Below are positions 11,491-45,997 of a stretch of 61,241 nt of DNA, one piece after another. Below the pieces are notes generated by a model, which was not told the DNA's origin, searched no databases, and saw nothing but the letters and a program-made list of their open reading frames with translations. The position numbers were made by a program, and so were the translations under genes. Origin of the DNA: an uncultured Verrucomicrobiota bacterium (GTDB lineage Bacteria; Verrucomicrobiota; Kiritimatiellia; SLAD01); contig CAYRPR010000001.1 in the NCBI GenBank assembly GCA_964425945.1, positions 1 to 61,241 on the forward strand. Reading direction: 5' to 3'. Every line of letters begins with the position of its first letter. Position 1 is the stretch's first letter.

Positions 11491-11543
11491 TCGATCGTTA
11501 GCCGTCGGTGGACGCCGGTTCGCCGAGGGCGGGAGAGGCCCCA

Positions 11544-11975: not shown

Positions 11976-11984
11976 GAGGCGATT

Positions 11985-12401: not shown

Positions 12402-12467
12402 TGAGGGTCGTCCTGCCACATTGCGGGTATGTGCCGAATAGGGTAGTATGAAGAACGGAGCATCGTC

Positions 12468-13919: not shown

Positions 13920-14060
13920 GACCGGTGCCTCATCGCGGTCGCCGTGCGGTATCCTCCGCCTCAAGTTTCATGAGGTATGGGACGGGGCGGGGCGACGGCC
14001 GGATGATTCACGCGCGTGTTCCGCGTTGTCGCGACGCGTCGCTATGCTATACTCGACGGC

Positions 14061-27786: not shown

Positions 27787-27787
27787 T

Positions 27788-30700
27788 ATGCGATCCGCCA
27801 GACTAGCCGGACTTGCTTTGCTGTGGGCCGCGATGTGGCTCCTGTCCGGCGTCCGCGACGCGTCAGCAGCCGGATACAGCGTCTCCTCCTGCGGAGGGGT
27901 GGCGGCGTGCAGTGGCAACTTCTGTTACTGCTGTGACTCCGAAGGCGTCTATAACGGCGGCAATTGCGTGTGGTACACATGGAATCGCCGGTGCCAGGCC
28001 GGCGAGAAACTGACTTGGTGTACGGACGCCCACAAATGGGCGGCGGACGCGAAATCGCGCGGATGGCCCGTCTGCAGCGTGCCCAAGGTCGGAGCGATCG
28101 GCGTCTACTCGGGACAGCATGTCGGCTACGTGGATGCCATTGAAGGCGATTATGTGTGGACCCGTGAGCAGGCCTGCTGGGGATTCTCCGGCGTCAAATA
28201 TATCAAGCGTCATAAGAGTTATTGGGATCTTGGCTATATCTACTTCAAAAATGACTCGTGTGCGCCTACCACCGGCAATCTGAAGGTGACGATTGAGCCA
28301 TCGGGTGCGCGTAGCGCGGGTGCGCAGTGGCGCCGTACGGGTACGAGCACGTGGCGGAACAGCGGGTACACGGAGACGGGTCTTTCGACGGGCAGCAAGA
28401 CGGTGGAATTCAAGACGATCTCGAACTGGGACAAGCCGGCCAACGCGAGCATCACGGTCAACGCGGGCCAGACGGCTTCGATGACGAAGACGTACGTTCG
28501 TCACAAGGGCTCGCTGAAGGTGACGATCAACCCCTCGGACGCGCGCACGGCGGGCGCGAAGTGGCGCCGGACGGGCACGAGTACCTGGCGTGACAGCGGT
28601 GCTACGGAGTCGAACATCGACACGGGCACGTACACGGTGGAGTTCAACACGTTGGCCAGTCCGTGGATCAAGCCTTCGAACATCAGCGTATCGATCACGA
28701 AGAACAATACGACGTCGGCCACGGCGCGTTATAACCGACCGCCGGTTCTGGCGTCGCCGGGCAGTCATTTTGTGCATGTCGGCGCGTTGTTGACGTTCCC
28801 GGTGACGGCGACGGACGCGGATGGCGACGCGATCACATTGAGTATGGCGAGCGCGCCGTCGGGTGCGACGCTGGTCTCGACGGGCGGTGTGGGTACATTG
28901 CGGTATACGCCGACGTTGGCGCAGTCCGGCGGGACCTTCACGCCGAGCTTCACGGCGACGGACGCGCTGAACGCGAAGGATACGAAGAGCGGGACGATCC
29001 AGGTGGGTTCGCCGCCGACGATCGATCCGATTGCGCCCCAGCGCGCGCGTGTGGGGCAGTTGTACGAGTTGGACGTGCAGGCCGACGATCCGAACGGCGA
29101 CGTGATTACGTTGACGATGGGCAACGCCCCCTCCGGGGCGGTGTTCGATCCGGGCGATGGCCGTCATGGCGTGTTCACGTTCACGCCGGAGTCGTCGCAG
29201 GGCGGCGAGGTGCATGACATCGTATTCACGGCCAGTGATGCGGACGGTCAGCACAGTGTGACGGTCACGCTGATCATCGGCGCGCCGCCGGTGTTACAGC
29301 CGGTTGACGACGTGGCGCTGACCGCGGGTCAGATCGCGAGCTTTACGGTAACCGCGGCGGATCCGAACAACGATGCGAAGACGTTTACGATGACGGGCGC
29401 GCCGGAGACGGCGACGCTGACGGGCTCGGGCGATAGCCGTACGTTTTCATACACGGCGCTGGAGTCGGAGAAGGGGATCGCGTTCGACATCACGTTCCAG
29501 GTGTCGGAGATCGACGGCGAGGACAGCGCGACGATGCGTCTTCGTGTGCAGGGTCCGCCGGAGTTCGTTGAGATCCCGCCGCAACGGGTGGTCATTACGA
29601 ATGAGCTGGAACTGGCGGTGGAAGCGGTGGATCCGGACGGGGACGCGATGACGTTTTCGATGACCGACGCGCCGCCGTCGGCCGTGTTCGAGACGCACGC
29701 GTCGGGCGGGACGTTCCGTTACACGCCTTCGGCGGAGGAGGGGGCGCAGACCTATACGGTGACGTTCACGGCCTCGGCGATCGACGGGGTGACGGGGATG
29801 GAGGTGCCGGTTCTGGTGGGCGTGCCGCCGTTGATGACGGCGCCGGTGACACAGCAAGTGGCCAAGTTTAACCTGCTGGAGTTCGAGGTGAGCGCCTCGG
29901 ACCTGAACGACGACGAACTGGTATTAAGCGTGGCTTCGTTGCCGGAGAACGCGGAGTTCGAGGTGGATGGGCCGGTGGGGGTGTTCCGGTTCACGCCGTC
30001 GTCGTTCCAGGGCGATCAGGATTACGCGGTGGTGTTCCGGGTCGAGGACGGGCTCGACGGATACGATGAGCGTACGGTGGACATTCGCGTGCTCGACGAC
30101 GACATGTACGAGCAGAACGATCTGATGGAGGAGGCGACCGACTTCAATCCATATCGTGGGATGACGCGTCCGGCGAAGCAGTCGGACGACGACTGGTATT
30201 ACATTGACCTGCCGTTCGGCCGTCAACGGGTCAGCGTGGATGTGCAGTTCGACCGTGAGTTGGGCGATATGCAGACCGTGTTGTACAACGCGCAGGGTGT
30301 GGTGGTGGGATACGGCGTTACGATGGCATCGGGATTGGAGTTGCATGCGGATAGTCCCTATTTTGGGCGGCACTATCTGGTGATATTTGGAGAGAACGTT
30401 GGGAATGGATACGCGCTCCTGTGGGATCACGCGGATTCGTGGGACGGTTGCGTCGGGGCGGATGACGCCTATGCGCCGAATCACACGCGGGATACGGCGG
30501 TGGTGTTGACGTCGGGTGAATGGCTGACGGACGGGTTGGGCGTGGGGATCGCGGGTCCGGCGGACTGGTATGTGATCGATGTTCCGGGCGGTGAGGAATG
30601 GTTGAGCGTTACGAGTATCTACGGTCAGGTGGAGCATCCGTTGCGATTGGAGGTGTACGATCCGGACGGCGAGTTGATTGCTTCGGTGGATGGTGCGGAT

Positions 30701-33517
30701 GGCCGGGTGGAGTGGAGCGGCGCGCTGGTATCGCGCGGGGCGCATGCGGTGAAGATCGAGTCGGTGAACGATCCGGTGTGCATTCCGTATGATCTGATTG
30801 TGCATACGGCGCCTCGTGAGAATCTTCCGGTGGAATATCTGTCGGGACGTTATGTGCGTTTGCCGGTATCGGTGTCGGATCAACCGGGCCGCTGGCTGGC
30901 GCCGGACCCGTCGGAAGGAGGGCGGTACAACGCCGCGGGAGCCGGTGGCCGGACGGGTCCGGACTTCTGGGGCAATGTGCCGGCGTTGGCCAACCAGGTG
31001 ATCGGGTTGGGCGGCTCGGTGCGTACGAACGGGTTGGACTGGCATCAGGCGCCGATGATTACGCGTTTGAGCGCAGGGAGCTGGAACCGGTTGTCGATCG
31101 AAGGGGAGCCGTTCGAGGGGCTGTATTTTCAGCGGGTGGTGGAGTTCGAGGAGGGCGACCGGGTGGTGGTGGTGCGCGACCAGTTGCTGAACCTGACCGA
31201 TGAGTCGCTGGAATCACTGCTTACGATGGACAGTGTGAACCCGACGCCGGACTACGCGCAGGCGGATCTGCGCACGGCGAACGACGTGCGGACGGTGTTT
31301 GATCGGCCGGATCTGGTGACGGCGTCGTCGTTGTTGAGCGGGCGGACGGTGGCGTTGGGCTCGTCGCATCCGGCGGCGGTGCCGGACGCGTCGTTCCTGA
31401 GCCGGGTGAATCCCTACACGGTGCTGGCTTCGCCGAACGATCCGGACGGTGCGGCGGCGAATCTGTCGGTGAAGCTGATTCTGAATCACGATCAACTCGG
31501 CGCGAATGAGTCGACCGAGGTTCTGTGGTATCTCGTGTTCGGGTCGGACGCGGATGATGCGGCGGATCAATTTGAGATTGCGGTGATGCGTAACGAGTGG
31601 GATGACGACGCGTTTGAGCCGAATGATGAGTTGGTTGGGGCGGTGGATGTGTCGGGTCAGTCCGGTGCGCGTTTGCGGGCGATCCAGGCCAACGATGACT
31701 GGTACGCGATCGAGTTGCCGATCGGGGTGCAGGACGTGAATGTGGAGGCTCGTTTTGCGCGGGCGCACGGCGACGTGCAGATCGACCTTTATTCGGCGGA
31801 CGGGGACTGGCTGTGCGGGTCGGAATTGACCGACGAGGGCGCGACGCTTTCCTGTGTGGCGGCGGCGCACGGGATCGTTTATCTGCGCGTGTGGGGGGAT
31901 GATTCGGGGAACGTGTACGATCTGGTCTGGACCGCCGGAAGCTCGTGGGGCGGGTGTGCGGGGTCGGTGGACGATGGGTTCGAGCCGAACAACAGCCGGG
32001 ATGAAGCGGGCTTGCTGGCGCCGGGGGTGTGGGGCGCGCTGCAGTCGGGCGGCATGCTGGTGGCGGGAGATGATGACTGGTATGCGCTGGAGTTGACGCC
32101 GGATCAGGTGGCGTTGACCGTAACCAGTGCCCACCATGCGGCGCACGGCGACCTGGCCCTGGAACTGTACGATTGGACCGGGACGCTGTTGCACGCGGTG
32201 GACACGGCGTCGGACTACGAGGTGCTTGCGTTCACGGTGCCCCGGGAAGGGCGGTACTATCTGCGGGTTGTTCCGCCCGCGAGTGGTGCGACGTGCAATC
32301 CGTACGATCTGATCTGGAGCGGGGAACCGTCTGCGGATCCGGCGTCGGATGCGATTCATCTGTACGGACGGTATTTGTATCTGCCGATTCAGCGGACGGG
32401 CGAACCGGGGCGGATGGTCCTGTCGGATCAGAGTGCGGGGTTGCGTTACGATGCGTCGGGGGTGGACGGCTTCGGGGGCGTGGATATCTGGCGTTACCTG
32501 ACGATTCCGTGCGCGCATTACATCGGCTGGGACGGTTCGCAGGTGGTGACGAACGGCAAGGGCTGGGCGTCGGGTCCGGTGGTGGAGAAGCTGAGTGCGG
32601 GCGACTTGAATCATGCCCGTATCAGCGGTACGCCGAAGGATGGTCTGTTGTTCGTCCGTGACGTGCGCTTCATGGATGGCGACCGCGTGATCCTGATTGA
32701 AGATGTGCTGGTCAACGAGGGGGTTGATCCGTTGGACCAGGTGCTGACGATGGATACTTTCCATCCGAATCCGGACTATGACGAGGGCATCCTCAACACC
32801 CGTAACTATGTGACCGCGCTATACCGGGATTTCGAACTGGCAGTGGCCGAGGCGACGCTTTCCGGAATCACACTGGCGGTGGGTTCGGAAAGTCCGTATG
32901 CGGTGGTGGACGCCTCCTTCCTGAGCCGGCAGAACCCCTATACGGTATTGAATGCGCCGAATCATCCGTCGGGTCAGGAGGCGAACTTCTCGCTCAAGAT
33001 GTTGATGAACTATGGCGCCGTGCCGCCGGGTGCGGCCGTGACCGGTCGCTGGGAAATCGTCGTGGGGGTTTCGCGGGCCGAGGCGATAACGCTGTGGCGT
33101 GAGTTGGGGGCGGATCAGCCGGCGATGATGGACATGCAGGGTTCCAGCCTGCCGGACTGGTGGGAGATCGCGTATTTCGGCGGATCGGTCGACCCGGATG
33201 CCGATGAGGATGGAGACGGCATGAGCAATCTCCGGGAGTACCTCGCGGGCACGGACCCCCATGATCCGGAGAGCGTATTCCGCGTGGACTTCAGCGTTCC
33301 GGTTTTCGATCCGCTCATCCCGGGCGGTCCGGTTCTTCACTTTGAGATCCAGCCGGGCCGTCGCGGCACGCTGTTGTACGGGACCAACCTGTTCGGTCCG
33401 TTCTGGCCGTTCCCGGATGCGCCGAGCGGTCCCGGCCGCCATTCCGTGACCGATCATTGGGATCGGATCGAAGGCACCATGTACTATTTATTGCGATTAG
33501 ATGAACCCCAACAATAA
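27788..33517 (+). CDS. Giant exported CHAP-domain protein: CHAP, 2 PEGA-like, 5 cadherin-like Ig, 2x[PPC-PPC-unknown module], Ca-type repeat, terminal beta-sandwich
   Basis: Start at MRSARL with the signal 'ALLWAAMWLLSGVRDASA'. CHAP Cys in 'GGNCVWYTW' (27965) and His in 'GQHVGYV' (28118). Five ~91-aa 'D.(D/N)GD..T..M...P.GA......G.F.(Y/F)TP' repeats. Four PPC-like 'E(P/Q)N(D/N)...DDDWY' domains. C-terminal segment 'DGDGMSNLREYLAGTDPHDPES'. Confidence 0.85.
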   Translation: MRSARLAGLALLWAAMWLLSGVRDASAAGYSVSSCGGVAACSGNFCYCCDSEGVYNGGNCVWYTWNRRCQAGEKLTWCTDAHKWAADAKSRGWPVCSVPKVGAIGVYSGQHVGYVDAIEGDYVWTREQACWGFSGVKYIKRHKSYWDLGYIYFKNDSCAPTTGNLKVTIEPSGARSAGAQWRRTGTSTWRNSGYTETGLSTGSKTVEFKTISNWDKPANASITVNAGQTASMTKTYVRHKGSLKVTINPSDARTAGAKWRRTGTSTWRDSGATESNIDTGTYTVEFNTLASPWIKPSNISVSITKNNTTSATARYNRPPVLASPGSHFVHVGALLTFPVTATDADGDAITLSMASAPSGATLVSTGGVGTLRYTPTLAQSGGTFTPSFTATDALNAKDTKSGTIQVGSPPTIDPIAPQRARVGQLYELDVQADDPNGDVITLTMGNAPSGAVFDPGDGRHGVFTFTPESSQGGEVHDIVFTASDADGQHSVTVTLIIGAPPVLQPVDDVALTAGQIASFTVTAADPNNDAKTFTMTGAPETATLTGSGDSRTFSYTALESEKGIAFDITFQVSEIDGEDSATMRLRVQGPPEFVEIPPQRVVITNELELAVEAVDPDGDAMTFSMTDAPPSAVFETHASGGTFRYTPSAEEGAQTYTVTFTASAIDGVTGMEVPVLVGVPPLMTAPVTQQVAKFNLLEFEVSASDLNDDELVLSVASLPENAEFEVDGPVGVFRFTPSSFQGDQDYAVVFRVEDGLDGYDERTVDIRVLDDDMYEQNDLMEEATDFNPYRGMTRPAKQSDDDWYYIDLPFGRQRVSVDVQFDRELGDMQTVLYNAQGVVVGYGVTMASGLELHADSPYFGRHYLVIFGENVGNGYALLWDHADSWDGCVGADDAYAPNHTRDTAVVLTSGEWLTDGLGVGIAGPADWYVIDVPGGEEWLSVTSIYGQVEHPLRLEVYDPDGELIASVDGADGRVEWSGALVSRGAHAVKIESVNDPVCIPYDLIVHTAPRENLPVEYLSGRYVRLPVSVSDQPGRWLAPDPSEGGRYNAAGAGGRTGPDFWGNVPALANQVIGLGGSVRTNGLDWHQAPMITRLSAGSWNRLSIEGEPFEGLYFQRVVEFEEGDRVVVVRDQLLNLTDESLESLLTMDSVNPTPDYAQADLRTANDVRTVFDRPDLVTASSLLSGRTVALGSSHPAAVPDASFLSRVNPYTVLASPNDPDGAAANLSVKLILNHDQLGANESTEVLWYLVFGSDADDAADQFEIAVMRNEWDDDAFEPNDELVGAVDVSGQSGARLRAIQANDDWYAIELPIGVQDVNVEARFARAHGDVQIDLYSADGDWLCGSELTDEGATLSCVAAAHGIVYLRVWGDDSGNVYDLVWTAGSSWGGCAGSVDDGFEPNNSRDEAGLLAPGVWGALQSGGMLVAGDDDWYALELTPDQVALTVTSAHHAAHGDLALELYDWTGTLLHAVDTASDYEVLAFTVPREGRYYLRVVPPASGATCNPYDLIWSGEPSADPASDAIHLYGRYLYLPIQRTGEPGRMVLSDQSAGLRYDASGVDGFGGVDIWRYLTIPCAHYIGWDGSQVVTNGKGWASGPVVEKLSAGDLNHARISGTPKDGLLFVRDVRFMDGDRVILIEDVLVNEGVDPLDQVLTMDTFHPNPDYDEGILNTRNYVTALYRDFELAVAEATLSGITLAVGSESPYAVVDASFLSRQNPYTVLNAPNHPSGQEANFSLKMLMNYGAVPPGAAVTGRWEIVVGVSRAEAITLWRELGADQPAMMDMQGSSLPDWWEIAYFGGSVDPDADEDGDGMSNLREYLAGTDPHDPESVFRVDFSVPVFDPLIPGGPVLHFEIQPGRRGTLLYGTNLFGPFWPFPDAPSGPGRHSVTDHWDRIEGTMYYLLRLDEPQQ
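28269..33486 (+). repeat. Copy 1 of a 5.2-kb direct repeat (partner at +11,112 nt)
   Basis: By hand alignment, the first ~346 nt differ from copy 2 at 31 positions. From 28615 to 33486 the forward and reverse-frame ORF translations of the two copies are all identical. Confidence 0.9.
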
Positions 33518-33526
33518 GGTGAAATA

Positions 33527-34237
33527 ATGACGCCTATGCACATGGCTCGAATAATGAAGATGGTCATGGCCGCTTCGACCGTTCTCGGCGGTCTGGTGTG
33601 CCAGGGACTTGCCCTAACGCCGACCCACCACCTGGTAAACAACATGGGGGGGCATATGAGCGCGGCGTCCTATTCCACGTACTCGGCCGGTGCCCAAGGT
33701 CATCCGGTGGGCGTGATCGCCGACACGGAGGATATATGGAGCAAGACGATCTACAACTTCACCGGTTTCATTCAGCCGGACGACATCGATCTGCTGGAGG
33801 ATACGGATGGTGACGGCATCGCGGATGTCGTGGATCCCGATATGGACGGCGACGGGCTCTCCAATATCGACGAGTTGTTCGGTTCGTGGTTCGGCGGCGT
33901 GGCGACCGATCCCAAGAGGGGGGACACGAGTGGGAATGGCACATCGGATTACGAGCATTGGATGACGGGCACCAATCCCACCGATCCGGAAAGCCAGCTT
34001 CGCATAACGGAGGTTATTTACAATTCGCCGACCGACGTGCGCATCCGGTTCAGGAGCGTCGGTGGACGGCAATATGAACTATCTCGATCCACGACGCTTG
34101 AGGGCCTGCTGGACGCGCCGTCCATCGACGGCATTGAAGGGGTGCCCGGCCAGGGCCCCTTCAATGAGGGTATAACCGAGTTCATCGATGTGCCGTTCGG
34201 TGAGGATTATTATTATCGTGTGCGATTGGTTCCGTAG
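33527..34237 (+). CDS. Exported protein with thrombospondin-type-3-like Ca-binding repeats and 'YYYRVRL' beta-sandwich C-terminus
   Basis: 'DTDGDGIADVVDPDMDGDGLSNIDE', 'GNGTSDYEHWMTGTNPTDPESQLRI', and terminal 'YYYRVRLVP'. Confidence 0.7.
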   Translation: MTPMHMARIMKMVMAASTVLGGLVCQGLALTPTHHLVNNMGGHMSAASYSTYSAGAQGHPVGVIADTEDIWSKTIYNFTGFIQPDDIDLLEDTDGDGIADVVDPDMDGDGLSNIDELFGSWFGGVATDPKRGDTSGNGTSDYEHWMTGTNPTDPESQLRITEVIYNSPTDVRIRFRSVGGRQYELSRSTTLEGLLDAPSIDGIEGVPGQGPFNEGITEFIDVPFGEDYYYRVRLVP

Positions 34238-34267
34238 TTCATGAAATCACAAAATGGGAGTAGCGAT

Positions 34268-34723
34268 ATGAAGGCATGGCTGATGATGCTGGGCATGATG
34301 ACAGCGGGCACGGTGTTCGCACACATGGTGGCGGAAGGGGAGGAACATGAATTCCACGAAAGTGAAATCCCCATCAGCATGACGACGGACGCGGACGGAC
34401 GACACTTCCTGCTGGCGGCGGACGCGCACGCTGTGGAGGCGACGCCGACATGGGATGGATCGGGCGAGCCGCCCCTGTCCACGGGTAAGGCGCTTGCCCT
34501 GGCCATTGACTGGCTGAAGGAGAACGAACCTGATTTCAGTGAGTTCCATGCGGAGCGTATCACCCTCCAGCGCGTCTGGCATGAGGGACTCGAAGATCGC
34601 TGGATCGCCGCTGTGACGGTTCGCGCTGTCGGATCGCTGGGACGCGTCAAGGTGTCGCACGATTTCGAGGTGGCTGTGCTGATGGACGAAACCGTAGTAG
34701 GACCGCAGGAGGTAAAACCATGA
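34268..34723 (+). CDS. Small exported hypothetical protein
   Basis: Start chosen at MKAWLMMLGMMTAGTVFA (signal peptide). About 150 aa, no motif recognised. Confidence 0.5.
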   Translation: MKAWLMMLGMMTAGTVFAHMVAEGEEHEFHESEIPISMTTDADGRHFLLAADAHAVEATPTWDGSGEPPLSTGKALALAIDWLKENEPDFSEFHAERITLQRVWHEGLEDRWIAAVTVRAVGSLGRVKVSHDFEVAVLMDETVVGPQEVKP

Positions 34724-34760
34724 CGGATGCGAACGCCAATGCAACCAACGGAGAGATGCT

Positions 34761-35744
34761 ATGAAAAAAATGCTTACCATACTGTTTGCGGCGTGGATCG
34801 CCGCGGCCATGGCGCAAGCCGGACCGCCCGATCTGATGAATTACCAGGGGCGCCTGGTCGATACGAATGGTGACCCGGTCAACGGGACCGTATCCGTCGT
34901 CGTACGCATCTTCACGCAGGCGAGCGGCGGAACCGAAATCTGGGAGCAGAACGTCGGGAATGTCGATGTCGCCGGGGGCATGTACACCCTGCAGTTCGGC
35001 GACGCCGGTCTGATCGGCGCGTTCAACAATGCCGAGACCTGGTTGGAGCTGGAGGTCAACAGCGAAACGCTCAGCCCCCGTCACCGTTTGTCATCCGTGC
35101 CGTACGCGCTGCGCGCAGCCGTTGCCGACCAGCTTGGAACACCGCTGGCCGGCATACCAACCGGCGGCATCGCTATCTGGAGCGGAACGCTGCAGGACGT
35201 GCCCGAGGGGTGGGTGTTGTGCGACGGAGACAATGACACGCCTGACCTGCGCGAGCTGTTCATCATGGGCGCGGCGACCGGTCAGGACCCGGGTGATACG
35301 GGCGGCGCACACACCCTGACGCTGGCAGTGAATCAGATGCCGGCTCACACGCACACCGCAACAGCCGGAAGCGCGGGGTCGCACTCGCATTCCGCGTCCA
35401 CCGGTTCGGGAGGGAGCCACTCCAATCACGGAGGGACAACTGGTAGCGGAGGAAGTCACAGCCACTCGATGCCCGCGGACAATTCCCTGGGTTCTCAAAC
35501 CGGACGAATCGGCGGCGGCGTGGGCGGATCGCGAACATCGCAAAGCGAAGAGGGCTTTAACTCGCGGAATCACAGTCACTCCGTCAACAGCCTCAGTTCG
35601 GGCGGCGCTCATACGCATTCGGCGGTAACGGCAAATGCCGCCGGGAGTCATAACCACACGGTCACCGTGAATTCCACCGGTTCGGGCGAGTCCATTGAGA
35701 ACCGCCCGGCGTTTTACGCGTTGGCGTTCATTATGAAGCTGTAA
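34761..35744 (+). CDS. Sec-signal-bearing phage-tail-collar/fibre-like protein with HxH ladder (paralog 1)
   Basis: Signal 'ILFAAWIAAAMAQA'. Collar-like 'PEGWVLCDGDNDTPDLRELF'. Motifs HTH, HSH, HSNH, HSH, then an insert, then HSH, HTH, HNH. Ends 'ENRPAFYALAFIMKL'. Confidence 0.85.
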   Translation: MKKMLTILFAAWIAAAMAQAGPPDLMNYQGRLVDTNGDPVNGTVSVVVRIFTQASGGTEIWEQNVGNVDVAGGMYTLQFGDAGLIGAFNNAETWLELEVNSETLSPRHRLSSVPYALRAAVADQLGTPLAGIPTGGIAIWSGTLQDVPEGWVLCDGDNDTPDLRELFIMGAATGQDPGDTGGAHTLTLAVNQMPAHTHTATAGSAGSHSHSASTGSGGSHSNHGGTTGSGGSHSHSMPADNSLGSQTGRIGGGVGGSRTSQSEEGFNSRNHSHSVNSLSSGGAHTHSAVTANAAGSHNHTVTVNSTGSGESIENRPAFYALAFIMKL

Positions 35745-35762
35745 ACAACGGAGTACACAATC

Positions 35763-36749
35763 ATGAAAACTATGATAATTACCTGTATCTGCGCGGCGGC
35801 CCTGCTGGTCGGCGCGACGGTTCGCGCCGAGGCGCCGCCATCGTCCATCTATTACCAGGGGCGTCTGCTCGATGCCGGCGGCGATCCGGTGGACGCGACC
35901 ATTGACGTCGAAGTGCGCCTATTCACCGAGGAAAGCGGCGGCACGGCGGTGTGGAGCCAGGCGCTTTCCGATATCTCCGTGGTCAACGGCCTCTACAGCT
36001 TCTTCTTCGGTGACGGAGGCCTGGCTGAAGCATTGGCCAACGACTCCGTCTGGCTCGAGTCAGAGGTTGACGGAGAAACCCTCGCACCGCGGCAGCGGTT
36101 GATATCCGTTCCTTACGCCCTGCGCGCCGCAACGGCCGGCCAATTGGATCCTCCGATGTCGGGCGTGCCGACCGGCGTGATCATCATGTGGAGCGGCGGT
36201 CTGGGCGAAATACCGGACGGATGGGCCTTGTGCGACGGTCTGAACGGAACGCCGGACCTGCGTGAACGGTTTGTGATGGGCGCGGGGGTCGAGGACGATG
36301 TCGGCGACATCGTCGGCGCCAACTCCCTCGTGCTTACCGCCGGTCAACTGCCATCCCACGCGCATACCGGATCGCTGGAACTGGCGGGCGCACATGCGCA
36401 CACATCACCCAACGCCCCCTCCGGCGGATCACACACCCATTCCGGCGGGGCGATCAACAATTCCGGGAGCCACACCCACTCCATCCGGTATGGAAATTAC
36501 AGCGAAACCGGCCGAGGTCGTCCGGGTGGCAAATACGGTAACTACACTCAGTTCAACGTGACGTCCGTGTCCGGAGGGAATCACACGCATACGTACAGCG
36601 TGTCGAGCGCGGGGAACCACACGCATACCCTCACTGTGAGTACGACCAACACCCATGCCCACACCGTAACCCTGGAACAAACCGGCGGGAGCGAGGCGAT
36701 CGACAATCGGCCCGCCTATTTCGCACTGGCCTTCATCATGAAGCTGTAA
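35763..36749 (+). CDS. Sec-signal-bearing phage-tail-collar/fibre-like protein with HxH ladder (paralog 2)
   Basis: Signal 'AAALLVGATVRA'. 'PDGWALCDGLNGTPDLRERF'. Motifs HAH, HAH, HTH, HTH, then an insert, then HTH, HTH, HAH. Ends 'DNRPAYFALAFIMKL'. Confidence 0.85.
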   Translation: MKTMIITCICAAALLVGATVRAEAPPSSIYYQGRLLDAGGDPVDATIDVEVRLFTEESGGTAVWSQALSDISVVNGLYSFFFGDGGLAEALANDSVWLESEVDGETLAPRQRLISVPYALRAATAGQLDPPMSGVPTGVIIMWSGGLGEIPDGWALCDGLNGTPDLRERFVMGAGVEDDVGDIVGANSLVLTAGQLPSHAHTGSLELAGAHAHTSPNAPSGGSHTHSGGAINNSGSHTHSIRYGNYSETGRGRPGGKYGNYTQFNVTSVSGGNHTHTYSVSSAGNHTHTLTVSTTNTHAHTVTLEQTGGSEAIDNRPAYFALAFIMKL

Positions 36750-36766
36750 AAAACGGAGAAGATTAC

Positions 36767-37741
36767 ATGAAAACAATGATACAAAATACCCTGTGCGCGT
36801 TGGCACTGATCGTCGGGGTCGCCGTACAAGCCGCCAGCCCGGCCCTGATCAACTACCAGGGACGTCTGCTCGATACGGCTGACGAACCGGTGAACGCGAA
36901 TGTGTCCGTCGTCGTACGGGTGTTCACCCAGCCGTCCGGCGGCAGCGCGGTGTGGGAGGAAAACGTCGGCTCCGTTCTCGTGATCAACGGTCTCTACAAC
37001 TTCCAGTTCGGCGACGCGGGTCTATCCGATGCGCTGGACAACGACCAGGCCTGGCTGGAGTTGACGATGGGCGGCAATACGTTCTCGCCCCGCCAGCGGC
37101 TGGTGTCGGTCCCTTACGCCCTGCATGCCGAGATAGCGGGCGAGGTCGAGGACGCTCCGTCCGGCGTACCGAGCGGCTTGATTGTGATGTGGTACGGCGC
37201 ATTGAGTGCGATTCCGGACGGGTGGCTGCTGTGTGACGGATCGAATGACACACCCGACCTGAGGAACCGGTTCGTGTATGGGGCGTCCGACAGCGTTTCG
37301 CCGGGCACAACGGGAGGCGCCAATTCGTACGTGCTGGCCACGGCCCAATTGCCTGCCCACACGCATGCCGGGGCATCCAGTACGGAGGGATCCCATACGC
37401 ATACCGTGACTACGGCGAGCGCCGGCGCGCACACGCACACCGCGTCGGTCAATAGCCCGAGCCATCGGCACAACCATTATCAGCGCAGTTACAGTGGCAC
37501 GTATCCCCAGGACTCCGTTGCCACGTCGCCGAATACCGGAACGGCCACCATCAACAGCGGTTCATCCGGGAACCACAACCACACGCGCCCGAACGTCAGC
37601 GGCGGATCGCACGGGCACACCATCAGCATTACATCAAACGGAGCGCATGAGCACGATCTGACCATTGACACCACGGGTGACAATGAGGCCATCGACAATC
37701 GGCCGGAGACCATGGTGCTCGCGTTCATCATGAAGGAGTAG
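36767..37741 (+). CDS. Sec-signal-bearing phage-tail-collar/fibre-like protein with HxH ladder (paralog 3)
   Basis: Signal 'ALALIVGVAVQA'. 'PDGWLLCDGSNDTPDLRNRF'. Motifs HTH, HTH, HTH, HRHNH, then an insert, then HNH, HGH, HEH. Ends 'DNRPETMVLAFIMKE'. Confidence 0.85.
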   Translation: MKTMIQNTLCALALIVGVAVQAASPALINYQGRLLDTADEPVNANVSVVVRVFTQPSGGSAVWEENVGSVLVINGLYNFQFGDAGLSDALDNDQAWLELTMGGNTFSPRQRLVSVPYALHAEIAGEVEDAPSGVPSGLIVMWYGALSAIPDGWLLCDGSNDTPDLRNRFVYGASDSVSPGTTGGANSYVLATAQLPAHTHAGASSTEGSHTHTVTTASAGAHTHTASVNSPSHRHNHYQRSYSGTYPQDSVATSPNTGTATINSGSSGNHNHTRPNVSGGSHGHTISITSNGAHEHDLTIDTTGDNEAIDNRPETMVLAFIMKE

Positions 37742-37876
37742 GGCGTCTCGACGTGGGATACCGGCGTGGGTCCGCAAGGCAAGCGCTCGCAATGCATCGA
37801 GGACCCATGGGGGGCGACTGACTGCGCCTGAATGGTGGATATTGTTGTGCCGAACAATTCAGGAAACCGAATAGGG

Positions 37877-40800
37877 ATGACCAATGGGCGCGAGAGGAAG
37901 GCCGTTCAACGCGGCGCCCTGTCGGCTTGTGTACTCCTGCTGATGGCGGCCGCCCTGATCGCAACGTACCCCGCGCGCGCGGACTACAGCCTGCACGTTC
38001 CCGGTGTATACACGCATGATCAATTCGGCTTCGTAGTGTCCTATCCCGCCGAGTGGTCGGTGGTGACCGGGCCGTCAGCCGATGGCGTGGGCGTCGTGTC
38101 CTTCGAGAGCGCGGCGGGGGATCGCATCGTATGCTCCTTCGAGACGTGGACTGGAAAAGGCGGCCTCATGGAGCGTCTGGCAGACGGCGGCGCCCTTCTT
38201 GACGGCATCCTGTCGTCGTGGTTGCCTGATGAGCCAAACGCGTTTGCGGCTGGCGATGCGCCGGCTGTTCGCGTCGCGTGGCCGGCTGAATTCGGGAACA
38301 CCCGGCTGACCACGTTCTTTGTTAAGTACGATTTGGTCTTCCGGATCGATTATGCGCGGGTGTCGGCCGCGGATCACCTGGAGGCGTATGATCACTTGCT
38401 GGATTCGTTCTTCTACGAGCCTTTCCCGCCCCCCGAGCAGGAGTGGATTGCCAATGCCACGCGCGAATTCGCGATATACATGCCAACGCGGGGCTGGACC
38501 GTGCGTCATGAAACCTGGGCCACGGATTATGAATTCGAAATAGAGGAGAAACTGGATTTCGTTCATGTCGATGGCGCCATGATATGGATCGATGTATGGA
38601 GCAATCCTGGAGGACTGGACCTGGATCAGTGGATGGCCACGAATGCATCCATCCTTTCCTTTGGGCCGGAGGATGTGTCGGCGATGTCGCTGTCGGACGG
38701 GCTGATCACGGCGTACCGACATGAAGAAGCGGGTCCGGAAGTCCAAGCGTTCAATAGTGTTCAAACACTCTTTGCCTTCGGCTCGAAAGTATACCGGGCC
38801 AGCTACCTCAAGCGGGACGGTGGCGCCGCGCTGGCGCTATTTGATGAATTGGTTCAGAGCGTATCATTTCAGCCGTCGCCGCGTTGGAATGATTCTTCCG
38901 TACTCGCCGTTTACGAGCGCCGGACCGCATCCAGCGTCGGAGAGATCGTTCCGCTCGTGTACTCCTGCGGCGGCCAGAATGATACCTGCCCGTGCGGCGC
39001 ATACAATCCGTTTCCGTGTTGTAAACATACCGACTGCTATGCGGATGGTTCCGATGGAAATTGCACATGGCACGCGTGGCATCGCGGATGCTGCGATTGG
39101 AACAAGAATATCCCGCCGCGCGGAAATGCCAACACCTGGGCCGGTGTATTCAGCAGCCATGCGGACTACACACTGTCATCCACGCCGCAAGTCGGCGATA
39201 TCGCCTGCAAGAACTCGGGAACGTTCGGCCATGTGGCCTATGTCACATCGGTGGGCTCGACTACGGTTACTGTAACCGAGCAGAACTGCTGTGGCGCCGT
39301 ATGGGGTGTGCCCAGCGGAACGCGCACACACACGTACAGTAAGAGCTACTTCGACGGGGGATATGCCCGGCCTAAATCCGCCACCGGCAGCCTGAAGGTG
39401 ACGATTGAGCCCTCGGGTGCGCGTAGCGCGGGTGCGCAGTGGCGCCGTACGGGCACGAGCACGTGGCGGAACAGCGGGTATACGGAGACGGGTTTGTCGA
39501 CGGGGTCGAAGACGGTGGAGTTCAAGACGATCTCGAACTGGGACAAGCCGGCCAACGCGAGCATCACGATCAACGCGGGCCAGACGGCTTCGATGACGAA
39601 GACGTACGTGCGTCACAAGGGTTCATTGACGGTGACGATCAACCCGGCGGATGCGCGCACGGCGGGCGCTCAGTGGCGTCGGACGGGCACGAGCACCTGG
39701 CGCAATAGCGGGGCGACGGAGTCGAGCATCGACACGGGCACGTACACGGTGGAGTTCAACACGTTGGCCAGTCCGTGGATCAAGCCTTCGAACATCAGCG
39801 TATCGATCACGAAGAACAATACGACGTCGGCCACGGCGCGTTATAACCGACCGCCGGTTCTGGCGTCGCCGGGCAGTCATTTTGTGCATGTCGGCGCGTT
39901 GTTGACGTTCCCGGTGACGGCGACGGACGCGGATGGCGACGCGATCACATTGAGTATGGCGAGCGCGCCGTCGGGTGCGACGCTGGTCTCGACGGGCGGT
40001 GTGGGTACATTGCGGTATACGCCGACGTTGGCGCAGTCCGGCGGGACCTTCACGCCGAGCTTCACGGCGACGGACGCGCTGAACGCGAAGGATACGAAGA
40101 GCGGGACGATCCAGGTGGGTTCGCCGCCGACGATCGATCCGATTGCGCCCCAGCGCGCGCGTGTGGGGCAGTTGTACGAGTTGGACGTGCAGGCCGACGA
40201 TCCGAACGGCGACGTGATTACGTTGACGATGGGCAACGCCCCCTCCGGGGCGGTGTTCGATCCGGGCGATGGCCGTCATGGCGTGTTCACGTTCACGCCG
40301 GAGTCGTCGCAGGGCGGCGAGGTGCATGACATCGTATTCACGGCCAGTGATGCGGACGGTCAGCACAGTGTGACGGTCACGCTGATCATCGGCGCGCCGC
40401 CGGTGTTACAGCCGGTTGACGACGTGGCGCTGACCGCGGGTCAGATCGCGAGCTTTACGGTAACCGCGGCGGATCCGAACAACGATGCGAAGACGTTTAC
40501 GATGACGGGCGCGCCGGAGACGGCGACGCTGACGGGCTCGGGCGATAGCCGTACGTTTTCATACACGGCGCTGGAGTCGGAGAAGGGGATCGCGTTCGAC
40601 ATCACGTTCCAGGTGTCGGAGATCGACGGCGAGGACAGCGCGACGATGCGTCTTCGTGTGCAGGGTCCGCCGGAGTTCGTTGAGATCCCGCCGCAACGGG
40701 TGGTCATTACGAATGAGCTGGAACTGGCGGTGGAAGCGGTGGATCCGGACGGGGACGCGATGACGTTTTCGATGACCGACGCGCCGCCGTCGGCCGTGTT

Positions 40801-43800
40801 CGAGACGCACGCGTCGGGCGGGACGTTCCGTTACACGCCTTCGGCGGAGGAGGGGGCGCAGACCTATACGGTGACGTTCACGGCCTCGGCGATCGACGGG
40901 GTGACGGGGATGGAGGTGCCGGTTCTGGTGGGCGTGCCGCCGTTGATGACGGCGCCGGTGACACAGCAAGTGGCCAAGTTTAACCTGCTGGAGTTCGAGG
41001 TGAGCGCCTCGGACCTGAACGACGACGAACTGGTATTAAGCGTGGCTTCGTTGCCGGAGAACGCGGAGTTCGAGGTGGATGGGCCGGTGGGGGTGTTCCG
41101 GTTCACGCCGTCGTCGTTCCAGGGCGATCAGGATTACGCGGTGGTGTTCCGGGTCGAGGACGGGCTCGACGGATACGATGAGCGTACGGTGGACATTCGC
41201 GTGCTCGACGACGACATGTACGAGCAGAACGATCTGATGGAGGAGGCGACCGACTTCAATCCATATCGTGGGATGACGCGTCCGGCGAAGCAGTCGGACG
41301 ACGACTGGTATTACATTGACCTGCCGTTCGGCCGTCAACGGGTCAGCGTGGATGTGCAGTTCGACCGTGAGTTGGGCGATATGCAGACCGTGTTGTACAA
41401 CGCGCAGGGTGTGGTGGTGGGATACGGCGTTACGATGGCATCGGGATTGGAGTTGCATGCGGATAGTCCCTATTTTGGGCGGCACTATCTGGTGATATTT
41501 GGAGAGAACGTTGGGAATGGATACGCGCTCCTGTGGGATCACGCGGATTCGTGGGACGGTTGCGTCGGGGCGGATGACGCCTATGCGCCGAATCACACGC
41601 GGGATACGGCGGTGGTGTTGACGTCGGGTGAATGGCTGACGGACGGGTTGGGCGTGGGGATCGCGGGTCCGGCGGACTGGTATGTGATCGATGTTCCGGG
41701 CGGTGAGGAATGGTTGAGCGTTACGAGTATCTACGGTCAGGTGGAGCATCCGTTGCGATTGGAGGTGTACGATCCGGACGGCGAGTTGATTGCTTCGGTG
41801 GATGGTGCGGATGGCCGGGTGGAGTGGAGCGGCGCGCTGGTATCGCGCGGGGCGCATGCGGTGAAGATCGAGTCGGTGAACGATCCGGTGTGCATTCCGT
41901 ATGATCTGATTGTGCATACGGCGCCTCGTGAGAATCTTCCGGTGGAATATCTGTCGGGACGTTATGTGCGTTTGCCGGTATCGGTGTCGGATCAACCGGG
42001 CCGCTGGCTGGCGCCGGACCCGTCGGAAGGAGGGCGGTACAACGCCGCGGGAGCCGGTGGCCGGACGGGTCCGGACTTCTGGGGCAATGTGCCGGCGTTG
42101 GCCAACCAGGTGATCGGGTTGGGCGGCTCGGTGCGTACGAACGGGTTGGACTGGCATCAGGCGCCGATGATTACGCGTTTGAGCGCAGGGAGCTGGAACC
42201 GGTTGTCGATCGAAGGGGAGCCGTTCGAGGGGCTGTATTTTCAGCGGGTGGTGGAGTTCGAGGAGGGCGACCGGGTGGTGGTGGTGCGCGACCAGTTGCT
42301 GAACCTGACCGATGAGTCGCTGGAATCACTGCTTACGATGGACAGTGTGAACCCGACGCCGGACTACGCGCAGGCGGATCTGCGCACGGCGAACGACGTG
42401 CGGACGGTGTTTGATCGGCCGGATCTGGTGACGGCGTCGTCGTTGTTGAGCGGGCGGACGGTGGCGTTGGGCTCGTCGCATCCGGCGGCGGTGCCGGACG
42501 CGTCGTTCCTGAGCCGGGTGAATCCCTACACGGTGCTGGCTTCGCCGAACGATCCGGACGGTGCGGCGGCGAATCTGTCGGTGAAGCTGATTCTGAATCA
42601 CGATCAACTCGGCGCGAATGAGTCGACCGAGGTTCTGTGGTATCTCGTGTTCGGGTCGGACGCGGATGATGCGGCGGATCAATTTGAGATTGCGGTGATG
42701 CGTAACGAGTGGGATGACGACGCGTTTGAGCCGAATGATGAGTTGGTTGGGGCGGTGGATGTGTCGGGTCAGTCCGGTGCGCGTTTGCGGGCGATCCAGG
42801 CCAACGATGACTGGTACGCGATCGAGTTGCCGATCGGGGTGCAGGACGTGAATGTGGAGGCTCGTTTTGCGCGGGCGCACGGCGACGTGCAGATCGACCT
42901 TTATTCGGCGGACGGGGACTGGCTGTGCGGGTCGGAATTGACCGACGAGGGCGCGACGCTTTCCTGTGTGGCGGCGGCGCACGGGATCGTTTATCTGCGC
43001 GTGTGGGGGGATGATTCGGGGAACGTGTACGATCTGGTCTGGACCGCCGGAAGCTCGTGGGGCGGGTGTGCGGGGTCGGTGGACGATGGGTTCGAGCCGA
43101 ACAACAGCCGGGATGAAGCGGGCTTGCTGGCGCCGGGGGTGTGGGGCGCGCTGCAGTCGGGCGGCATGCTGGTGGCGGGAGATGATGACTGGTATGCGCT
43201 GGAGTTGACGCCGGATCAGGTGGCGTTGACCGTAACCAGTGCCCACCATGCGGCGCACGGCGACCTGGCCCTGGAACTGTACGATTGGACCGGGACGCTG
43301 TTGCACGCGGTGGACACGGCGTCGGACTACGAGGTGCTTGCGTTCACGGTGCCCCGGGAAGGGCGGTACTATCTGCGGGTTGTTCCGCCCGCGAGTGGTG
43401 CGACGTGCAATCCGTACGATCTGATCTGGAGCGGGGAACCGTCTGCGGATCCGGCGTCGGATGCGATTCATCTGTACGGACGGTATTTGTATCTGCCGAT
43501 TCAGCGGACGGGCGAACCGGGGCGGATGGTCCTGTCGGATCAGAGTGCGGGGTTGCGTTACGATGCGTCGGGGGTGGACGGCTTCGGGGGCGTGGATATC
43601 TGGCGTTACCTGACGATTCCGTGCGCGCATTACATCGGCTGGGACGGTTCGCAGGTGGTGACGAACGGCAAGGGCTGGGCGTCGGGTCCGGTGGTGGAGA
43701 AGCTGAGTGCGGGCGACTTGAATCATGCCCGTATCAGCGGTACGCCGAAGGATGGTCTGTTGTTCGTCCGTGACGTGCGCTTCATGGATGGCGACCGCGT

Positions 43801-44623
43801 GATCCTGATTGAAGATGTGCTGGTCAACGAGGGGGTTGATCCGTTGGACCAGGTGCTGACGATGGATACTTTCCATCCGAATCCGGACTATGACGAGGGC
43901 ATCCTCAACACCCGTAACTATGTGACCGCGCTATACCGGGATTTCGAACTGGCAGTGGCCGAGGCGACGCTTTCCGGAATCACACTGGCGGTGGGTTCGG
44001 AAAGTCCGTATGCGGTGGTGGACGCCTCCTTCCTGAGCCGGCAGAACCCCTATACGGTATTGAATGCGCCGAATCATCCGTCGGGTCAGGAGGCGAACTT
44101 CTCGCTCAAGATGTTGATGAACTATGGCGCCGTGCCGCCGGGTGCGGCCGTGACCGGTCGCTGGGAAATCGTCGTGGGGGTTTCGCGGGCCGAGGCGATA
44201 ACGCTGTGGCGTGAGTTGGGGGCGGATCAGCCGGCGATGATGGACATGCAGGGTTCCAGCCTGCCGGACTGGTGGGAGATCGCGTATTTCGGCGGATCGG
44301 TCGACCCGGATGCCGATGAGGATGGAGACGGCATGAGCAATCTCCGGGAGTACCTCGCGGGCACGGACCCCCATGATCCGGAGAGCGTATTCCGCGTGGA
44401 CTTCAGCGTTCCGGTTTTCGATCCGCTCATCCCGGGCGGTCCGGTTCTTCACTTTGAGATCCAGCCGGGCCGTCGCGGCACGCTGTTGTACGGGACCAAC
44501 CTGTTCGGTCCGTTCTGGCCGTTCCCGGATGCGCCGAGCGGTCCCGGCCGCCATTCCGTGACCGATCATTGGGATCGGATCGAAGGCACCATGTACTACT
44601 TACTGAGACTCGATGACCCCTAG
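37877..44623 (+). CDS. Giant exported CHAP-domain protein 2: two N-terminal copies of the 27205-type domain, a diverged CHAP head, then the same stalk as the 27788 protein
   Basis: Start chosen at MTNGRE with the signal 'ACVLLLMAAALIATYPARA'. CHAP Cys in 'DGNCTWHAW' (39062) and His in 'GTFGHVAYV' (39230). From 'GSLKVTIEPSG' onward it is collinear with the 27788 protein. Confidence 0.85.
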   Translation: MTNGRERKAVQRGALSACVLLLMAAALIATYPARADYSLHVPGVYTHDQFGFVVSYPAEWSVVTGPSADGVGVVSFESAAGDRIVCSFETWTGKGGLMERLADGGALLDGILSSWLPDEPNAFAAGDAPAVRVAWPAEFGNTRLTTFFVKYDLVFRIDYARVSAADHLEAYDHLLDSFFYEPFPPPEQEWIANATREFAIYMPTRGWTVRHETWATDYEFEIEEKLDFVHVDGAMIWIDVWSNPGGLDLDQWMATNASILSFGPEDVSAMSLSDGLITAYRHEEAGPEVQAFNSVQTLFAFGSKVYRASYLKRDGGAALALFDELVQSVSFQPSPRWNDSSVLAVYERRTASSVGEIVPLVYSCGGQNDTCPCGAYNPFPCCKHTDCYADGSDGNCTWHAWHRGCCDWNKNIPPRGNANTWAGVFSSHADYTLSSTPQVGDIACKNSGTFGHVAYVTSVGSTTVTVTEQNCCGAVWGVPSGTRTHTYSKSYFDGGYARPKSATGSLKVTIEPSGARSAGAQWRRTGTSTWRNSGYTETGLSTGSKTVEFKTISNWDKPANASITINAGQTASMTKTYVRHKGSLTVTINPADARTAGAQWRRTGTSTWRNSGATESSIDTGTYTVEFNTLASPWIKPSNISVSITKNNTTSATARYNRPPVLASPGSHFVHVGALLTFPVTATDADGDAITLSMASAPSGATLVSTGGVGTLRYTPTLAQSGGTFTPSFTATDALNAKDTKSGTIQVGSPPTIDPIAPQRARVGQLYELDVQADDPNGDVITLTMGNAPSGAVFDPGDGRHGVFTFTPESSQGGEVHDIVFTASDADGQHSVTVTLIIGAPPVLQPVDDVALTAGQIASFTVTAADPNNDAKTFTMTGAPETATLTGSGDSRTFSYTALESEKGIAFDITFQVSEIDGEDSATMRLRVQGPPEFVEIPPQRVVITNELELAVEAVDPDGDAMTFSMTDAPPSAVFETHASGGTFRYTPSAEEGAQTYTVTFTASAIDGVTGMEVPVLVGVPPLMTAPVTQQVAKFNLLEFEVSASDLNDDELVLSVASLPENAEFEVDGPVGVFRFTPSSFQGDQDYAVVFRVEDGLDGYDERTVDIRVLDDDMYEQNDLMEEATDFNPYRGMTRPAKQSDDDWYYIDLPFGRQRVSVDVQFDRELGDMQTVLYNAQGVVVGYGVTMASGLELHADSPYFGRHYLVIFGENVGNGYALLWDHADSWDGCVGADDAYAPNHTRDTAVVLTSGEWLTDGLGVGIAGPADWYVIDVPGGEEWLSVTSIYGQVEHPLRLEVYDPDGELIASVDGADGRVEWSGALVSRGAHAVKIESVNDPVCIPYDLIVHTAPRENLPVEYLSGRYVRLPVSVSDQPGRWLAPDPSEGGRYNAAGAGGRTGPDFWGNVPALANQVIGLGGSVRTNGLDWHQAPMITRLSAGSWNRLSIEGEPFEGLYFQRVVEFEEGDRVVVVRDQLLNLTDESLESLLTMDSVNPTPDYAQADLRTANDVRTVFDRPDLVTASSLLSGRTVALGSSHPAAVPDASFLSRVNPYTVLASPNDPDGAAANLSVKLILNHDQLGANESTEVLWYLVFGSDADDAADQFEIAVMRNEWDDDAFEPNDELVGAVDVSGQSGARLRAIQANDDWYAIELPIGVQDVNVEARFARAHGDVQIDLYSADGDWLCGSELTDEGATLSCVAAAHGIVYLRVWGDDSGNVYDLVWTAGSSWGGCAGSVDDGFEPNNSRDEAGLLAPGVWGALQSGGMLVAGDDDWYALELTPDQVALTVTSAHHAAHGDLALELYDWTGTLLHAVDTASDYEVLAFTVPREGRYYLRVVPPASGATCNPYDLIWSGEPSADPASDAIHLYGRYLYLPIQRTGEPGRMVLSDQSAGLRYDASGVDGFGGVDIWRYLTIPCAHYIGWDGSQVVTNGKGWASGPVVEKLSAGDLNHARISGTPKDGLLFVRDVRFMDGDRVILIEDVLVNEGVDPLDQVLTMDTFHPNPDYDEGILNTRNYVTALYRDFELAVAEATLSGITLAVGSESPYAVVDASFLSRQNPYTVLNAPNHPSGQEANFSLKMLMNYGAVPPGAAVTGRWEIVVGVSRAEAITLWRELGADQPAMMDMQGSSLPDWWEIAYFGGSVDPDADEDGDGMSNLREYLAGTDPHDPESVFRVDFSVPVFDPLIPGGPVLHFEIQPGRRGTLLYGTNLFGPFWPFPDAPSGPGRHSVTDHWDRIEGTMYYLLRLDDP
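39381..44598 (+). repeat. Copy 2 of the 5.2-kb direct repeat
   Basis: See copy 1. Identity ends about 25 nt before each stop codon ('...YYLLRLDEPQQ*' against '...YYLLRLDDP*'). Confidence 0.9.
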
Positions 44624-44703
44624 TCGTGAGCCGAAAAGGCTGGTACTGGTTTCCAATCTGTGCTTCTATGGATTGAGTATCTACGGAAAGATTTAGAGTC
44701 CCC

Positions 44704-45936: not shown

Positions 45937-45997
45937 GGCCGCATCCGGGAGCGGCTTCGTCCTTTTCTTATCGTCGCCGGTGCTTTAATCTGCGGTC

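Follow-up and report, generated by a model that had tools for sequence, protein, structure and literature searches.

Introduction

The tuf genes and the ribosomal RNA (rRNA) operons of enterobacteria are the textbook examples of concerted evolution (PMC5485169, PMC8022953, PMC6053082). Conversion in bacteria is RecA-dependent and proceeds as processive break repair from a homologous template, with a mean walk of ∼500 nucleotides (nt) per direction for the tuf genes of Salmonella; the walk aborts where homology ends, and mismatch repair shortens the tracts (PMC5485169). In Helicobacter pylori, intragenomic gene conversion between the adhesin paralogs babA, babB, and babC produces chimeric genes, and the occupancy of the loci varies among strains (PMC4552749). 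The bab family is the closest documented parallel to the locus analyzed here, which lies in a window of 61,241 nt from an uncultured bacterium of the Kiritimatiellia (contig CAYRPR010000001.1 of assembly GCA_964425945.1, positions 1 to 61,241). Two giant genes of this window, termed A and B, encode different N-terminal heads, each followed by a stalk, and the stalks are identical over 4.9 kb. It is quite probable that gene conversion replaced the stalk interior of an existing paralog.

The giant genes resemble the bab genes as surface-protein paralogs in which intragenomic recombination would keep some segments nearly identical while another part stays distinct. In the bab chimeras, a variable functional part is combined anew with a shared part, as seems to be the case here. 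However, the bab genes measure ∼2.2 kb, lie at distant loci, and are reported to have exchange zones of <200 bp to ∼900 bp, whereas the giant genes span 5.7-6.7 kb and share a tract of 4.9 kb. The bab genes have common 5' and 3' ends around a variable middle, while the variable part of the giants is the N-terminal CHAP head; no phase-variable repeat is seen in the giants.

The likeness to the tuf and rRNA duplicates lies in the process, a RecA-type, non-reciprocal conversion that keeps duplicates nearly identical, stops where homology ends, and has its tracts shaped by mismatch repair. In contrast with the giants, those duplicates are essential, highly expressed housekeeping genes that are homogenized over their full length. 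Only the stalk of the giants is homogenized, their heads being ∼36% identical, and the tract is about ten times the mean tuf walk. Paired giant adhesins with long near-identical regions and a differing functional end are also present in Haemophilus influenzae (HMW1/HMW2) and Moraxella catarrhalis (MhaB1/MhaB2). These pairs differ from the giants in their secretion system, which is of the two-partner type, in the beta-helix fold of their TpsA proteins, and in the lack of a CHAP head. The giants differ from the known cases in the scale of the tract (4.9 kb in genes of 6 kb), the selectivity for the stalk, and the host lineage; the process itself is known, and no new mechanism is revealed.

Sequence identity between the giant genes

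The two giant genes are encoded on the + strand in direct orientation, ∼4.3 kb apart, within an operon-like cluster. Gene A (27788-33517, in a mechanically called open reading frame (ORF) from 27722) encodes a protein of 1,909 amino acids (aa) in which a signal peptide and a short CHAP head of the A type precede the stalk. Gene B (37877-44623, in a mechanical ORF from 37832) encodes a protein of 2,248 aa whose stalk follows a signal peptide and a long head of the B type. The two products, P0001 and P0124, fall in one 90% cluster; gene B had no exact entry in the contig index.

Direct comparison at an offset of 11,112 nt reveals 4,872 nt without a mismatch, from 28615 to 33486 in gene A and from 39727 to 44598 in gene B, both edges falling within the ORFs and the reading frame being shared by the two genes. 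The tract is preceded by a zone of older homology (28269-28614 in gene A and 39381-39726 in gene B), hereafter the 5' zone, which encodes the first immunoglobulin (Ig)-like domain of the stalk and half of the second and in which 31 of 346 positions differ (91.0% identical). Before 28269, the two sequences are no more alike than random ones (24-37% identity per 100 nt). On the other side, six mismatches occur within the 19 nt that follow 33486 and 44598, and the genes end in diverged tails, at 33487-33517 in gene A (…YLLRLDEPQQ*) and at 44599-44623 in gene B (…YLLRLDDP*). The stop codons occupy 33515-33517 and 44621-44623, gene B ending two codons earlier than gene A. A BLASTN comparison of the window with itself returns a single high-scoring segment pair for the giant genes (28269-33508 against 39381-44620, 99.29% identical over 5,240 nt) and no further long repeat in the window. 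Tandem Repeats Finder detects no repeats over 27000-45500, and a tandem array was rejected on this basis.

These results reproduce most of a first-pass annotation that had been made from the letters alone. The perfect 4.9-kb tract, with its offset and its sharp edges within the ORFs, is confirmed to the base; the count of 31 differences over the ∼346 nt 5' of it is the same on recomparison; the reported collapse of identity ∼25 nt before the stop codons corresponds to the diverged last ∼25-31 nt of each gene; and the self-comparison proposed as a check gives the one segment pair described above. The annotation had also described the flanks as unrelated, which is true of the nucleotide sequence upstream of 28269 but not of the proteins, as both heads carry a CHAP domain and align at ∼36% aa identity. 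An old duplication, which the annotation expected to leave scattered differences, would be diverged throughout; none are seen across the 4,872 nt, and this candidate was rejected.

The divergence between genes A and B is layered, as revealed by Nei-Gojobori estimates of non-synonymous (dN) and synonymous (dS) divergence on a codon alignment. The heads have a dN of 0.76 with dS saturated, and the 5' zone (114 codons) has a dS of 0.29 and a dN of 0.038, with a dN/dS of 0.13. The tract comprises 1,623 codons with 1,198 synonymous sites and not one difference. Over the last eight codons, both genes specify YLLRLD(E/D)P, yet four of the seven shared residues are written in different synonymous codons (TAT/TAC, TTG/CTG, CGA/AGA, and TTA/CTC), in addition to the E/D difference and the earlier stop of gene B. 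Under an even distribution of the differences across the 5,218 nt of 5' zone and tract, the probability that all 31 fall in the first 346 nt would be 10^-36.5; at the rate of the 5' zone, ∼437 differences are expected in the tract and 0 are seen. The pattern of identity is therefore not due to chance.

Conversion is classically recognized by a perfect block that has homologous but diverged sequence on either side. Because gene B carries diverged homologous ends of its own, the ends of its stalk predate the overwriting of the interior. A gene with its own head and a homologous but diverged tail, and with an identical interior, thus points to replacement inside an existing paralog, which is gene conversion. 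The homogenization is specific to the giants, as the three tandem tail-fiber-like paralogs encoded between them are merely 65-67% identical to one another at the nucleotide level.

Evidence from sequencing reads

The window is part of a metagenome-assembled contig, and the presence of two copies of the stalk was checked at the read level with Logan contigs (k = 31) of run SRR9016296 that match the window at 100%. Two of them, L009 (33457-35489) and L010 (44569-46084), begin with the last 30 nt (k-1) of the tract and run on into two different downstream flanks. On the 5' side, L092 (26636-28330) takes in the initial 30 nt of 28301-28341, the first run of at least 31 nt that the two genes share in the 5' zone, and stops there. 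L001 (35763-37875) extends from the last fiber gene into gene B. As the breaks fall at k-1, both exits of the repeat and the branch in the 91% zone are present in the raw reads; as the repeat has two entries and two exits and the junctions are unique, no linear path other than the assembled one exists. Two physical copies of the stalk are very likely real. The first-pass annotation had offered an assembly artifact as the alternative to gene conversion, and the two distinct exits largely exclude it as far as the existence of two copies is concerned, while the perfection of their identity may still be a product of the assembler. The organism is also present in run SRR9016297 (L093), with contigs 100% identical to the window.

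Head types and giant genes in related genomes

The closest homologs of the giant proteins are encoded in metagenome-assembled genomes (MAGs) of Kiritimatiellia, P0002 at 64% identity and P0003-P0007 at 49-59%. Their heads fall into two classes. The A-type heads, those of A, P0002, P0007, and P0015, are 70-80% identical in aa sequence, and the head of A (27788-28268, signal peptide and CHAP domain) shares 79-80% of its residues with the heads of P0002 and P0007 along its whole length. The B-type heads, those of B, P0003-P0006, P0012, and P0121, are 40-52% identical, with 45-52% between the head of B and those of P0003-P0006. The CHAP cores are only 30-36% identical between the classes (36% for A and B), compared with 89% for A and P0002. 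The A type and the B type are two old, separately conserved kinds of head, each of which occurs on its own in other genomes.

The stalks are related in a different manner. The common stalk of A and B is 61% identical in aa sequence to that of P0002, which bears an A-type head, and equally to that of P0003, which bears a B-type head. In the tract, six orthologs reach at most 66% nt and 63% aa identity, against 100% between A and B. In the 5' zone, the orthologs are at most 78% identical to A and B at the nucleotide level, with dS of at least 0.94. In both segments, A and B are by far each other's closest relatives. Because the stalks are not sorted by head type, head and stalk have had different histories in the giant-gene family.

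In every relative that could be retrieved, tblastn detects just one giant gene over ±10 kb. The giant precedes the set of five genes that separates A from B in L002, L005, L007, and L164 and follows it in L012; in L011, a giant is present and the five genes are absent. In the window, both of the positions known from relatives are occupied. No other locus with two giants was found in scans of one genome per GTDB species, which returned two further members of the family, or of JGI metagenomes, which returned one. The second large genes of L164 and L165 were considered as extra giants and rejected, being unrelated to them.

Recombination in the family is also visible between genomes. L011 (Logan SRR34578581) and L014 (MAG FR_21) represent near-identical strains, in which the 9.9 kb that follow the giant gene are 99.91% identical and the sequences that precede it have nothing in common. 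The giant genes themselves (L011 3992-10324 and L014 9794-16150) are 92.9% identical overall and form a mosaic, in which blocks of 100% identity of up to 1.3 kb stand beside blocks of 54-88% and the divergence is strongest in the CHAP head. The mosaic indicates that between genomes, too, the giant family is a hot spot of recombination.

Mechanism and alternative explanations

Under gene conversion, A and B would have been paralogs with complete homologous stalks before the event. A recent non-reciprocal homologous recombination, in one or a few overlapping events, would have copied at least 4,872 nt of stalk between the genes and erased all differences within the tract, which extends from the second Ig-like domain to ∼10 codons short of the stop. 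The dS of 0.29 in the adjoining 346 nt would go back to an earlier homogenization or to the duplication itself. The mechanism is probably RecA-type conversion; unequal exchange between sister chromosomes would be an alternative route, the copies being direct repeats 11.1 kb apart. The first-pass annotation preferred gene conversion to an old duplication or a mobile element, and this preference is upheld by the homologous, diverged flanks on both sides, the old heads, and the absence of mobile-element features. Concerted evolution in the strict, recurrent sense is only suggested, by two or three layers of divergence, and no other genome was found in which two giants had been homogenized independently.

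Several points weigh against gene conversion in this form. A single tract of 4.9 kb is long compared with a walk of ∼500 nt (PMC5485169), and several events or another mechanism of exchange may be involved. Mismatch repair should hinder conversion at ∼9% divergence, and MutL is encoded in the window (14016-15851). The divergence of the 5' zone is uneven, with 19 of 117 positions differing beside the tract (16%) and 12 of 229 farther out (5%; Fisher p = 0.0012, for a split chosen post hoc). This gradient is opposite to that of a simple eroding edge, and it hints at more than two events. The direction of the transfer is not inferable, the stalk being equidistant from orthologs of the A type and the B type. 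Among the GTDB species genomes, the JGI metagenomes, and the contigs of P0002-P0007 and P0015, no further genome was found to carry both genes, and hence recurrent homogenization is not demonstrated. Lastly, the 100% identity could partly be produced by the assembler, with sparse single-nucleotide polymorphisms popped when one collapsed edge was repeated (X-R-S-R-Y).

This last point leads to an explanation that is unlikely but carries real weight, namely that both copies exist and their perfect identity is a product of assembly. The stalks would be, for example, 98-99.9% similar with isolated differences collapsed, and the edges would mark where divergence is dense enough to keep two paths in the graph. 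Two entries, two exits, and one shared edge form the topology that short-read assemblers resolve by writing the edge twice; the Logan contigs are short and broken at every shared run of at least 31 nt, which suggests short-read data; and zero differences over 4,872 nt are the expected outcome of a collapse. Nevertheless, each end would still show an abrupt rise in identity from 84-95% to ∼98% or more over a few bases, which requires recent conversion all the same. Hidden sparse differences, of which no direct sign was found, would change only the age and number of events and leave the mechanism as it is. A more drastic misassembly, with one stalk per genome and a contig that joins variants from two strains or includes an 11.1-kb intermediate, either circular or duplicated, is very improbable. 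Short reads cannot span a perfect repeat of 4.9 kb in a metagenome-assembled contig, and the graph formally fits a chromosome of the order A head, repeat, B tail, and 410-aa gene, accompanied by a circle of 11,112 bp. Yet the four junctions are unique and lie outside the repeat, three of them are found in independent Logan contigs (L092, L009, and L010), and the start of gene B is joined to the last fiber gene in L001. The assembled order is the only linear path that uses each junction once, and it agrees with the relatives, where a giant is followed by the five genes or, in L012, comes after them. A branch without gene B, leading from the fiber gene straight to the 410-aa gene, is seen in neither L001 nor L010.

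The remaining alternatives accept the two identical copies and explain them by other means. In a recent segmental duplication with fusion, ∼5.2 kb of the A stalk would have been copied behind a B-type head that had no stalk before, and the differences in the 5' zone and the tail would have arisen later or been imported from another strain. Gene B could indeed be young, since relatives have one giant each, and the equal distance of the stalk from orthologs of both head types is compatible with such a copy. This account is nonetheless very improbable, because uniform divergence after a duplication cannot leave 4,872 nt free of differences next to 346 nt with 31 of them. The tail of B also has the residues of A in other codons and is hence an old homolog and not a copy, and the dS of 0.29 and dN/dS of 0.13 of the 5' zone speak of long-term evolution under selection. 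To rescue the account, recombination is needed at both ends, which is again conversion. Long perfect repeats in bacteria are usually mobile, and the neighboring genes are tail-fiber-like, but the chance that the 4.9-kb repeat is an insertion sequence, a transposon, or a phage-derived cassette present twice is negligible. The repeat lies wholly within two ORFs in the same frame and encodes Ig-like, PPC, beta-supersandwich, and TSP3 domains of a stalk, and orthologous stalks occur at the same place in relatives with a single copy. Transposase or integrase matches are absent, the flanking genes match no mobile-element family in Pfam, NCBIfam, or PHROGs, the PHROG matches are limited to the fiber genes, and the edges of the repeat lack terminal repeats and other features of an element.

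If the stalk was overwritten by gene conversion, the locus provides a natural case of domain-selective homogenization, with ∼5 kb of identical sequence joined to enzymatic heads that are ∼36% identical. The giant family of the Kiritimatiellia would then evolve by module exchange at the boundary between head and stalk. The direct-repeat geometry would make the intervening segment prone to deletion, and the locus is expected to be structurally unstable because 4.9-kb direct repeats flank the five genes. A RecA-mediated deletion of 33487-39726 (∼6.2 kb, containing the five genes and the B head) is predicted to leave a hybrid of A head and B tail. For genome scanning, the locus suggests that a long perfect repeat in a metagenome is probably real biology, whereas its exact identity can be trusted only with reads.

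Domain architecture of the giant proteins

The heads of the giant proteins are predicted to be CHAP-type peptidoglycan hydrolases on the evidence of their sequences. Both match the Pfam CHAP family (PF05257; 35.2 bits for A and 47.8 bits for B, cutoff 26), the catalytic residues Cys396 and His452 (B numbering) are invariant in eight of eight family members, and CHAP and PcsB structures in the PDB are matched with E-values (E) of 6e-10 to 3e-7. The B-type head (37877-39380) is ∼340 residues longer than the A-type head. Its order is a poorly modeled stretch of ∼150 aa, a domain with a PsbP/Tsi3/DcrB-like fold, and the CHAP domain. The PsbP-like domain (residues ∼185-350) is modeled at a predicted local distance difference test (pLDDT) score of 70-90 and is matched by Foldseek to 2xb3 (E 2.6e-5) and to Tsi3 (4luq, E 1.5e-4). 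Within the segment that precedes the CHAP domain (37877-38950, B residues 1-358), the ∼150 N-terminal residues are missing from other B-type heads and are modeled with low confidence; by eye, they resemble the PsbP/Tsi3-like domain behind them, as a second copy that has degenerated. The guanine-cytosine (GC) content of both heads is 0.59-0.60, and an origin of gene B by horizontal gene transfer, considered on the grounds of composition, was rejected for want of a signal.

The stalk begins with two Ig-like domains of ∼78 aa, which are followed by several Ig repeats of the Big_9 or 'tandem-95' kind. In gene A, Big_9 scores 93 bits in Pfam, and PPC and TSP3_bac both stay below the cutoff. A module of PPC-like domains and a beta-supersandwich of ∼260 aa is present twice, at 30821-31600 and 32354-33103, and the stalk also contains a TSP3 repeat and a C-terminal beta domain. 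Foldseek matches the beta-supersandwich to the N-domains of GH94 phosphorylases (E 5e-7), and the fold of the module is akin to the carbohydrate-binding N-domains of GH94, GH65, and GH63 enzymes. The internal duplication of the module is old, with copies ∼41% identical in aa sequence and a patch (31350-31485 and 32874-33009) at 70.6% nucleotide identity.

Both giant proteins are probably made, and the stalk would serve as a shared scaffold that presents two different cell-wall-hydrolase heads. Antigenic variation from a silent cassette, as in the pilE/pilS type, was rejected because each copy is a full ORF that has a start codon and a signal peptide of its own. A bolder proposal, which is improbable, is that the identical stalk and the direct repeats are a functional design for the exchange of heads and not a recent accident. 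In that event, the stalk would be kept identical so that both CHAP heads dock onto partners encoded by the five intervening genes, including tail-fiber-like trimers, and recombination between the repeats would allow a population to gain, lose, or swap heads. The mosaic alleles of L011 and L014 would be the face of head exchange between genomes, and the Kiritimatiellia would possess a scaffold with an exchangeable cell-wall-hydrolase warhead for attacking or attaching to other bacteria.

Genomic neighborhood

The window consists of chromosomal DNA, as the region is flanked by housekeeping genes encoding MutL, a SerA-like dehydrogenase, TilS, and FtsH. Five genes on the + strand separate the two giants (33527-37741), encoding proteins of 236 aa and 160 aa and three tandem paralogs of ∼325 aa (34761-35744, 35763-36749, and 36767-37741). 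The C-terminal halves of the ∼325-aa proteins match tail-fiber families of PHROG (E 1e-26) and the tail fiber 9qgo in the PDB (E 2.7e-7). A prophage was considered and rejected, the PHROG matches being confined to these three genes and the locus being flanked by housekeeping genes.

Fibers that combine related parts are known from Bdellovibrio, whose mosaic adhesive trimer (MAT) family has diversified by module swapping (PMC10769870). The likeness to MAT proteins concerns the ∼325-aa neighbors only, which join a weak MAT N-terminal match to phage tail-fiber-like C-terminal parts. Their N-termini score 35.7-40.9 bits with NCBIfam NF053851 (Bdello_MAT_N), below the cutoff of 60, and membership of the family was rejected for the two scores of 35.7 and 40.9 bits. 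The ∼325-aa proteins also differ in having about a third of the length of MAT proteins, and the giants are not MAT proteins.

Downstream of gene B lies a gene for a protein of 410 aa (44704-45936, + strand), the position of which matches that of an unannotated gene of 343-398 aa immediately after the third fiber gene in L002 and L005. In the window, gene B lies beyond the end of the third fiber gene at 37741 and before the start of the 410-aa gene at 44704, and so keeps the two apart.

The cluster (18518-45936 in the window) is syntenic in L002, L005, L007, L012, and L164 with ∼60% aa identity. Its first half consists of a serine/threonine kinase on the minus strand, two small genes on the minus strand, a LuxR/GerE regulator, and three or four uncharacterized exported proteins, one of which has a weak PEP-CTERM match. 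The second half consists of the giant gene, genes for proteins of ∼240 aa and ∼160 aa, the three tandem genes for ∼325-aa proteins, and a gene for a protein of 340-400 aa. Most members of the cluster are without a Pfam family. The conserved cluster may represent a surface fiber or adhesion apparatus.

Scans of the window for tRNA genes and Rfam families gave no matches, and a scan for promoters and terminators found sites no more commonly than in shuffled sequences. The sole site of note is a GC-rich hairpin with a T-rich tail at 45934-45959, which overlaps the stop codon of the 410-aa gene and may be the terminator of the long run of + strand genes that starts near 23239. Outside the cluster, a direct repeat of 76 nt (11580-11655 and 12024-12099, 83% identical) lies within a minus-strand ORF of 394 aa (11385-12569) that has no Pfam match.

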